Assembly (NCBI GenBank): GCA_044892505.1
Contig: CM097882.1
Coordinates: 531,030,001 to 531,094,000, forward strand
Reading direction: 5' to 3'
Source: Schmidtea nova
Lineage: Eukaryota
Length of the DNA stretch: 64,000 nt
Below the pieces are notes generated by a model. The model made no database searches, was not told the origin of the DNA, and saw nothing but the letters and a program-made list of their open reading frames with translations. The translations under genes and the position numbers were made by a program. This document shows, piece by piece, positions 39,234-39,797 of the stretch. Each line of letters opens with the position of its first letter. The first letter of the stretch is position 1.

Positions 39234-39797
39234 ATGGATAATCTAAAGCAAACCATTGACACGAATGCCGGACGCCAATTGCAGCGAAGGATCTGTCTAT
39301 TAGAAGGAAAGTTGAGTTGCCAGGAACTAGAAATGGAAGAGTTGCGGCGGACTTGGTTTAACCCAACGAAAATGAAAGAAGTATTACAGAGCAATGATAG
39401 AGTAAAGCAGGCCCTCGGCGAACAAACCGCTGAACTTTCTGTCACAAAATTAGAGCTTAACCGTTGCCTACGCTCTGTCTCGAATGAATTTGTAAAAAGA
39501 TATCTCAGAGAGCAGATACCCGCAAGTACTTTTGACCGGTGGATTCCGAAACGTGGAGTGACCATTGAAACACAAACGGAAGAGTCGACACCCGTGATAG
39601 CCGCTGAAAACGTCGATGAAGTGCCCTTGACTAGCGCGGCTCCAGTAAAAACTAACAAGCGAAATCGCCTGGGAGCAAAAAGGATGAGGGAAAGGCGAGC
39701 GTTCGCTGAGAGAATGAACATCGAGGTGGACCTGCTAAGTGGCTTATCCGAGAGACAATTGCTGAATGTCATAAATACCACGGTGTTTTTAGGCTAA
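39234..39797 (+). CDS. LTR ORF-B (187 aa), intact
   Basis: TTTCTAG|ATG acceptor; LQRRICLLEGKL, TWFNP, KLELNRCL, IETQT, KRNRLGAKRMRERRAF; stop overlaps AATAAA. Confidence 0.85.
   Translation: MDNLKQTIDTNAGRQLQRRICLLEGKLSCQELEMEELRRTWFNPTKMKEVLQSNDRVKQALGEQTAELSVTKLELNRCLRSVSNEFVKRYLREQIPASTFDRWIPKRGVTIETQTEESTPVIAAENVDEVPLTSAAPVKTNKRNRLGAKRMRERRAFAERMNIEVDLLSGLSERQLLNVINTTVFLG

Follow-up and report, generated by a model that had tools for sequence, protein, structure and literature searches.

An intact reading frame of the planarian Schmidtea nova, referred to here as ORF-B, raises the question of which genetic element it belongs to and what its product may do. It was analysed within a stretch of 64,000 nucleotides (the window) and in the genome at large. 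An earlier note, made from the window sequence alone, had read ORF-B as an RNA-export or regulatory adaptor with a Rev/Rex-like module layout and an LC8-type motif.

Results

ORF-B copies in the window and in the genome

The three intact and five decayed copies of ORF-B that had been listed for the window were all located, and their coordinates are given in Table 1 with those of the accompanying features. The intact relatives at 2481 and 48216 share 26-30% identity with the 39234 copy. Most copies in the window have a second frame, ORF-A, upstream, and several have a putative RNA hairpin, motif Z, downstream. A search of the genome (1.25 Gb) gave at least 150-151 scored matches per ORF-B query from about 9,000-9,800 first-look candidates, both figures being lower bounds and not copy numbers. 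Because of this number of candidates genome-wide, together with the purifying selection described below, ORF-B goes beyond chance.

Table 1. Positions of ORF-B, its relatives and associated features in the window
Feature	Position	Strand	Remark
RING-finger accessory ORF between 5' LTR and gag	1104..1565	-	contains PTTQTEE
PBS-like sequence	1895..1912	-	6 nt after LTR
5' LTR, 3291 nt, of a 28.5 kb full-length element running left out of the window	1919..5209	-	partner LTR 99.2% identical; target duplication CGTG
Motif Z, young family	2109..2182	-	
ORF-B, intact, young family	2481..3065	-	DVACGTE at motif position
ORF-A, intact, young family	3393..3869	-	
Inverted CCAAT box and TATA box, young LTR	4828..4861	-	
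ORF-B, decayed copy	13812..14374	+	frameshift
ORF-B, 3' fragment	14881..15036	+	decayed RING ORF nearby at 15831-16220
ORF-B, 5' fragment	20773..20910	+	
ORF-B, decayed copy	32310..32809	+	one stop and one frameshift; SGTQTG
ORF-B fragment, fifth family	37070..37243	+	
ORF-A of the 39234 LTR	38187..38708	+	4 stops
TAG straight before ATG, after pyrimidine run	39231..39233	+	splice-acceptor-like
ORF-B, 187 aa, intact, inside old-family Burro LTR remnant	39234..39797	+	open-frame translation
IETQTE, LC8-type motif	39564..39581	+	
Arg/Lys-rich block, residues 142-160	39657..39713	+	predicted helical
AATAAA overlapping ORF-B stop	39796..39801	+	candidate poly(A) signal
Motif Z core, covarying hairpin	39916..39995	+	conserved internal loop
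Motif Z apical 7-bp stem-loop	39963-39980	+	
LTR 3' end, CCAACA, 39234 locus	40095..40100	+	no primer-binding site after
Solo LTR, 48216 family	46075..54568	+	target duplication TTTA; split inside motif Z by unrelated gypsy insertion
ORF-B, intact, 48216 family	48216..48812	+	NSIGTD at motif position

ORF-A and ORF-B are genes within the LTRs of Burro-type elements

Matches to the 2481 and 48216 copies were often same-strand pairs about 25 kb apart, as seen, uncounted, in the match lists. Four of these pairs proved to be full-length long terminal repeat (LTR) elements, 28.5-29.4 kb in length. Their LTRs measure 3.2-3.3 kb, are 98.7-99.9% identical and have TG..CA ends, and a sequence resembling a primer-binding site (PBS) begins 6 nt past the 5' LTR; 4-bp target duplications could be read in three of the four. 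The PBS-like sequence in the window may resemble a tRNA-Pro 3' end. ORF-A and ORF-B are found in both LTRs, in the sense orientation relative to gag-pol. They are therefore LTR-internal genes of Burro-type giant Ty3/gypsy elements and not stand-alone genes, a central fact that the earlier note had missed.

The interior of the element encodes a CCHC gag, an in-frame env, protease, reverse transcriptase (RT), RNase H, integrase, ankyrin repeats and a TRAF/MATH ORF. In the one element scanned against Pfam, a match to the mononegavirus-type fusion protein Monjiviricetes_fusion (E 6e-69) lies between zf-CCHC and protease in a single ORF. A RING ORF precedes gag, and MATH/TRAF, ankyrin and RING cargo were all found; BIR and BCL2-like cargo gave no Pfam match at E 0.01 in that element. 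Burro/GYPSM1 elements are giant gypsy-like LTR retrotransposons of planarians (PMC6431247), and by size and domain layout the element matches Burro as described: both are about 28-29 kb long and present in thousands of copies, with a CCHC gag, an env in frame between gag and protease, RT, RNase H and integrase, and ankyrin, TRAF/MATH and RING domains. The available text of that source names neither ORFs nor an RNA structure within the LTR, whereas both are present here, and TRAF/MATH is here a separate downstream ORF, unlike in the Burro description.

Within the Burro lineage, the 39234 type represents an older family. Downstream of one LTR of this type (locus L047) lie a PBS-like site and remnants of RING, gag, env and RT with 48-87% identity, and another copy is a solo LTR of 3805 nt with the target duplication ATAT. 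When the end of the old-family LTR plus a primer site was used as a search pattern, 0 matches were obtained. Two apparent old-family LTR pairs were rejected, one being a duplication around a Polinton and the other consisting of unrelated neighbours. At the 39234 locus, ORF-A contains stops, no primer site follows position 40100 and the 5' end of the LTR could not be placed, although similarity with other copies extends to about 37956; therefore the locus is an LTR remnant, and its ORF-B is a fossil whose frame has stayed open so far. Ideas of a SINE- or MITE-like non-autonomous element, a Penelope/hammerhead element or an HDV-like agent were dropped once the full-length LTR element had been recognised.

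Several other repeats were observed alongside these LTRs. The unrelated gypsy element that interrupts the 48216 solo LTR (about 49109-54395) has long gag and pol ORFs, and two more decayed gypsy elements occupy 25412-29880 and 56504-61094, the latter with 133-nt direct repeats. A near-perfect palindrome of 865 nt (99.7%) lies at 10879-11743. Elsewhere in the genome, Polinton/Maverick elements, with ATPase, integrase and PolB-like ORFs recognised by eye, adjoin or sit within old LTR copies (L035-L041, L194-L197), and a 5.5-kb tandem array holds an old LTR and a 502-aa RING-like ORF.

Both LTR genes are under purifying selection

Selection was assessed with Nei-Gojobori counts on de-duplicated natural copies, and both ORF-A and ORF-B were found to be under purifying selection (dN/dS 0.11-0.24). 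Young ORF-B, from loci picked via ORF-A (23 distinct of 30), gave 0.21, and ORF-A, from loci picked via ORF-B, gave 0.12 and 0.20. The value of 0.11 for 48216-type ORF-B is biased, because these loci were picked by ORF-B itself. In the old family dS is saturated; dN/dS was 0.21-0.24 on shared variants versus 0.69-0.72 on singletons, as expected from selection during replication followed by decay in place, and stops were present in 17/20 and 22/27 copies. Between the two young families identity is 36% for ORF-B and 31% for ORF-A, and 94% for protease-RT-RNase H.

The possibility that these are functionless frames carried passively in long LTRs could appeal to the broken state of most old copies. 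It is effectively refuted by the dN/dS values, and the motif islands conserved within a variable linker, as well as the retention of both ORFs in five families, also speak against it.

Protein anatomy across five families

Five families were compared: two young (2481-type and 48216-type), the old (39234-type), a fourth and a fifth. All of them retain both ORF-A and ORF-B. The WFxP, ELxxCL, Arg-rich and Leu-rich elements pointed out earlier were seen in the alignment. A predicted N-terminal coiled coil is likewise present in all five families, although the string LQRRIxLLEGKL given for it belongs to the 39234-type family only. The W/YFxP motif and the basic block are also present in every family, and the comparison therefore identifies the coiled coil and basic block as an invariant core, with the LC8 anchor and the Leu tail as family-level extras.

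An AlphaFold2 model of the 39234 protein (pLDDT 72, pTM 0.28) predicts helices at residues 2-41, 44-94 (with a kink at WFxP) and 97-103, a basic helix at 145-169 and a tail helix at 173-186, and the linker at 108-142 is predicted to be disordered (pLDDT under 50). Hydrophobic residues show a heptad bias, with 0.4-0.7 at a/d positions versus 0.1-0.3 elsewhere. The basic block has 10 R/K in 22 residues and a conservation of 0.79; its helix may be merely a nuclear localisation signal (NLS), or DNA-binding.

The Leu-rich tail (conservation 0.80 in the old family) had been described as lacking a textbook nuclear export signal (NES). This description suits the two youngest families, in which simple NES patterns occur in 0/6 intact copies, but not the old family, in which they occur in 9/9. 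They are also found in 3/4 fourth-family copies and are class 1c/1d-like; such patterns have low specificity and are also present elsewhere in ORF-B proteins. In the fifth family ORF-B seems to end shortly past the basic block, and the tail is apparently absent.

Modelling and fold searches, which the earlier note had proposed as a check, led to no known family or fold for ORF-B: Pfam, PDB sequence, Foldseek (PDB and viral), VIA-align and ESM Atlas searches returned generic coiled coils only (Z 6.8 or less), and word-index protein searches gave no homologs. The full HMMER library yielded a single match, P0002 (407 aa, E 3.8e-4; hhalign probability 93%), whose C-terminal half resembles ORF-B in WFxP and the Arg block and is without TQT; it is possibly a distant family or a gene model laid over an LTR. 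ORF-A was modelled as a compact alpha/beta domain (pTM 0.62) with conserved Trp residues. Its best fold match, to GNAT acetyltransferases (Z 3.5), is too weak for assignment, and viral and Atlas searches were empty.

An LC8-type motif in some families

The proposed LC8 motif fared well for the 39234 copy and less well as a general property of ORF-B. In VTIETQTE each of the published positional rules for LC8 anchors (PMC6607443) was found: a polar residue at -4, a large one at -3, a non-aromatic one at -2 and D/E/P at +2, all in a disordered context. The Drosophila ASCIZ peptides IETQT and METQTE, which it matches, bind LC8 at 7 and 14 µM (PMC5963919, Table 2). As in ASCIZ-like LC8 clients, the motif lies in disorder beside a coiled coil; unlike in ASCIZ, ORF-B has a single motif. 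Among 43 distinct old-family copies the mean conservation of the ETQT columns is 0.85, versus 0.51 in the columns immediately preceding them and 0.38 in the linker that follows, and exact TQT occurs in 25/43. In the fourth family the triad is VQT in 13, IQT in 5 and MQT in 1 of the 19 readable copies (20 loci); the sequence shifts and the LC8 grammar is retained. Shuffling the ORF-B protein produces a triad of this kind in 14% of cases.

In both youngest families the anchor Q is G (CGT 23/23, IGT 23/23), and no TQT-like motif was found in 7/8 readable fifth-family copies. Non-canonical anchors such as IGC have been predicted for KANK1, in multivalent arrays (PMC12803091). The host genome encodes canonical LC8 genes. 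Besides, one chromosome carries a cluster (L122-L133) of at least 20 dynein light chain matches, intronless and full-length, and the PTTQTEE of the RING ORF is present in both young families, the older copy at 15831 reading EQTNKTE.

Expression signals in the LTR

A YAG trinucleotide was found 0-5 nt before the ATG at 17/20 ORF-B starts examined and, in each of two elements, ahead of 6/7 accessory ORFs; the background is 16% of 590 ATGs in one element. These acceptor-like sites would fit leader cis-splicing and spliced-leader trans-splicing equally. Four runs of unknown kind, contigs of a single study, contained no usable splice joint, which does not bear on expression either way. Four 3' accessory ORFs (L090-L091) lie in series with 80-130 nt spacers and an acceptor-like YAG at each ATG. 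Such a layout resembles an operon, and trans-splicing could separate its messages. Most ORF-B stops are followed by AATAAA, and in the three families checked the stretch from motif Z to the end of the LTR contains neither AATAAA nor ATTAAA.

Outside the ORFs, alignment of the two young LTRs was limited to motif Z and to a CCAAT plus TATA pair 345-392 nt into the LTR. When 50 loci of the old and fifth families were scanned for the pattern, the pair did not appear consistently; it was recognised in 2/5 families. Its position about 350-390 nt into the young LTRs suggests that each LTR may be a two-gene transcription unit; if the TATA box sets the start, R would be about 2.4 kb and would hold both ORFs, judging from these two of the five families. 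The TATA box also lies within a short inverted repeat (4813-4840, minus strand) that is kept in the 48216-type LTR with both sides changed. With a predicted promoter, acceptors and poly(A) signal at both ends of the element, full-length RNA would have to pass the 5' poly(A) signal and stay unspliced.

Motif Z is a covarying hairpin

Motif Z lies on the sense strand between the ORF-B poly(A) signal and the LTR end. Single motif Z sequences from the five families give the same hairpin fold. In an alignment of 44 sequences less than 86% alike, drawn from 174 matches, 84.7% of cells pair in a structure written from these folds, versus 74.7% after shuffling; slid controls reach 31-44%. In the apical helix pairing rises to 94%, with compensatory changes at 4/7 pairs and a usually GNRA-like loop. 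The covariation score was reached in 0/500 shuffles, a test that is inflated by relatedness and in which the structure was derived from the same sequences; RNAalifold recovered four of these pairs independently, among 6 pairs in all. The folding z-score of the young copy was -1.9 in sense versus +1.15 in antisense, and that of the 39234 copy was a modest -1.5.

Rfam, with hammerhead, HDV-like and other known RNA families, gave no match to motif Z near the gathering threshold, and the aligned sequences show no CUGANGA core ahead of the GACC/GGTC stem. Conservation within motif Z is highest at 2109-2117 and 39978-39986, a part that is complementary to the consensus 5' splice site and reads CAG|GTGAGC in antisense. 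This internal-loop strand would act as a donor on the antisense strand or else resemble U1 in the sense RNA, which could be another reason why it is conserved.

Discussion

A possible early-to-late switch

We suggest, at a probability of about 0.4, that the ORF-B product acts as a dimeric switch which binds RNA and licenses the full-length transcript, by read-through and export, separately or together. Transcription would start at the CCAAT plus TATA pair near the 5' end of the LTR, and every LTR would first yield short spliced ORF-A and ORF-B mRNAs ending at the poly(A) signal of that LTR. A full-length transcript would arise when this signal is read through and several acceptors are evaded. 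The ORF-B protein could dimerise via its coiled coil of 94 residues, with host LC8 as a clamp in the families that keep the anchor, and bind through its basic helix to motif Z, which only read-through RNA would carry. The outcome would be favoured read-through, nuclear exit of unspliced RNA, or both. By analogy, the logic would be Rev-like without Rev ancestry, and the use of CRM1 optional at best.

The adaptor role put forward in the earlier note is supported in part by the setting, namely an env-bearing element with acceptor-like sites and a covarying motif Z in the same LTR. No link to Rev, Rex or Rec was detected among the Pfam, PDB sequence and fold-search matches listed, the last from a model of pTM 0.28. 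Of the Rev/Rex-like layout the Arg-rich block holds at the sequence level in five families, whereas the NES is not conserved across families. This bears on a stricter version of the switch, a subset of it, in which ORF-B is a true Rev/Rex/Rec analogue that shuttles by means of a CRM1 export signal in its tail. The order of oligomerisation region, Arg-rich motif and Leu-rich tail, the tail patterns in 12/13 older-family copies and the old-family tail conservation of 0.80 are consistent with it. We nevertheless consider it distinctly unlikely, since the patterns are missing in both young families and of low specificity where they occur, and the fifth-family tail is apparently absent.

The long coiled coil and helical basic region could instead serve on DNA, with ORF-B acting as a transactivator or repressor of the LTR promoter (Tas/Tax/HBZ-like), its dimer placing two basic helices on the site. 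An early transactivator would likewise look like a small gene that brings an acceptor and a poly(A) signal of its own, and weak bZIP_1 matches were obtained for 2/23 members (best E 0.081). These matches are not significant, the basic helix lies 50 residues C-terminal of the coiled coil past a disordered linker, which reverses the bZIP order, and the LTR families share no conserved DNA site besides CCAAT/TATA and motif Z, so that this role appears unlikely.

Also unlikely, to a similar degree, is that ORF-B, perhaps with ORF-A, works against the silencing or defence machinery of the host, for instance through recruitment or titration of LC8-dependent complexes, its basic block being an NLS. 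ORF-B diverges very fast between families in which RT is conserved, a second TQT occurs in the RING ORF, the other accessory ORFs are of RING/TRAF types, and location in the LTR multiplies the gene across thousands of solo LTRs. Burro is under PIWI control (PMC8532177), and LC8 dimerises the fly PICTS silencing complex (PMC7861614). On the other hand, selection within families is purifying and not diversifying, and the anchor Q is lost in the youngest families. Fast ORF-B divergence together with a conserved motif Z core fits a host arms race as well as binding to the element's own RNA.

The position of motif Z, shortly before the primer-binding site, is one where retroviral packaging and initiation structures are located. 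ORF-B might accordingly be a cytoplasmic or particle adaptor that packages or transports genomic RNA, with motif Z as the packaging signal and LC8 used for dimerisation or dynein, and its combination of coiled coil and LC8 motif recalls viral phosphoproteins (PMC8615749). Such a role seems quite improbable, as gag already has a CCHC knuckle and the Arg block is NLS-like.

Implications

Burro makes up a major, PIWI-controlled share of planarian genomes, and the making and export of an RNA of about 25 kb with many acceptors and poly(A) signals are unaddressed in the literature searched. The switch proposed for ORF-B points to candidates for the protein, the RNA element and the host cofactor involved, in a tractable animal. 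If two selected genes follow an LTR promoter, solo LTRs, which are usually deemed non-coding, would form a multi-thousand-copy gene family, and this, if true, would bear on planarian annotation and on the reading of RNA-seq data. As a tentative whole, with the odds rather against its holding in every part, we propose that Burro may be a complex retrovirus-like element, in which the LTR would be a full two-gene transcription unit with a coding R of about 2.4 kb, solo LTRs would be dispersed ORF-A/ORF-B genes, and ORF-B with motif Z would be an independently evolved, LC8-assisted early-to-late switch. The element itself is already known, and the LTR genes and hairpin are the apparent new part; the primary Burro paper, figures, supplements and Repbase aside, no prior description of the LTR gene pair, its selection signature or the hairpin was found in the literature searched, and an earlier annotation is possible.

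Comparison with known systems

Rev-like proteins are defined by NLS, RNA-binding, oligomerisation and NES modules (PMC10746203). Like HIV Rev, HTLV Rex, HERV-K Rec and MMTV Rem, ORF-B is a small accessory protein, likely made from a spliced mRNA, with a predicted oligomerisation region, an Arg-rich block and a structured RNA nearby. Unlike them, it has a 94-residue coiled coil in place of a helix hairpin, an LC8 motif and an NES-like pattern limited to certain families, and its gene lies wholly within the LTR and is hence duplicated in each element. Within gypsy/Ty3 elements, CERV of C. elegans Cer1 is a spliced accessory protein required for export of genomic RNA (PMC10309623). By its description it offers a functional precedent for a gypsy export protein, and it differs from ORF-B in its length of 517 aa, its ring-forming domain with a Cys loop and its location outside the LTR. 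Protein-coding ORFs within an LTR are represented by MMTV sag and HIV nef, which lie in U3 upstream of the promoter; in contrast, ORF-A and ORF-B are located downstream of the sole recognised TATA box.
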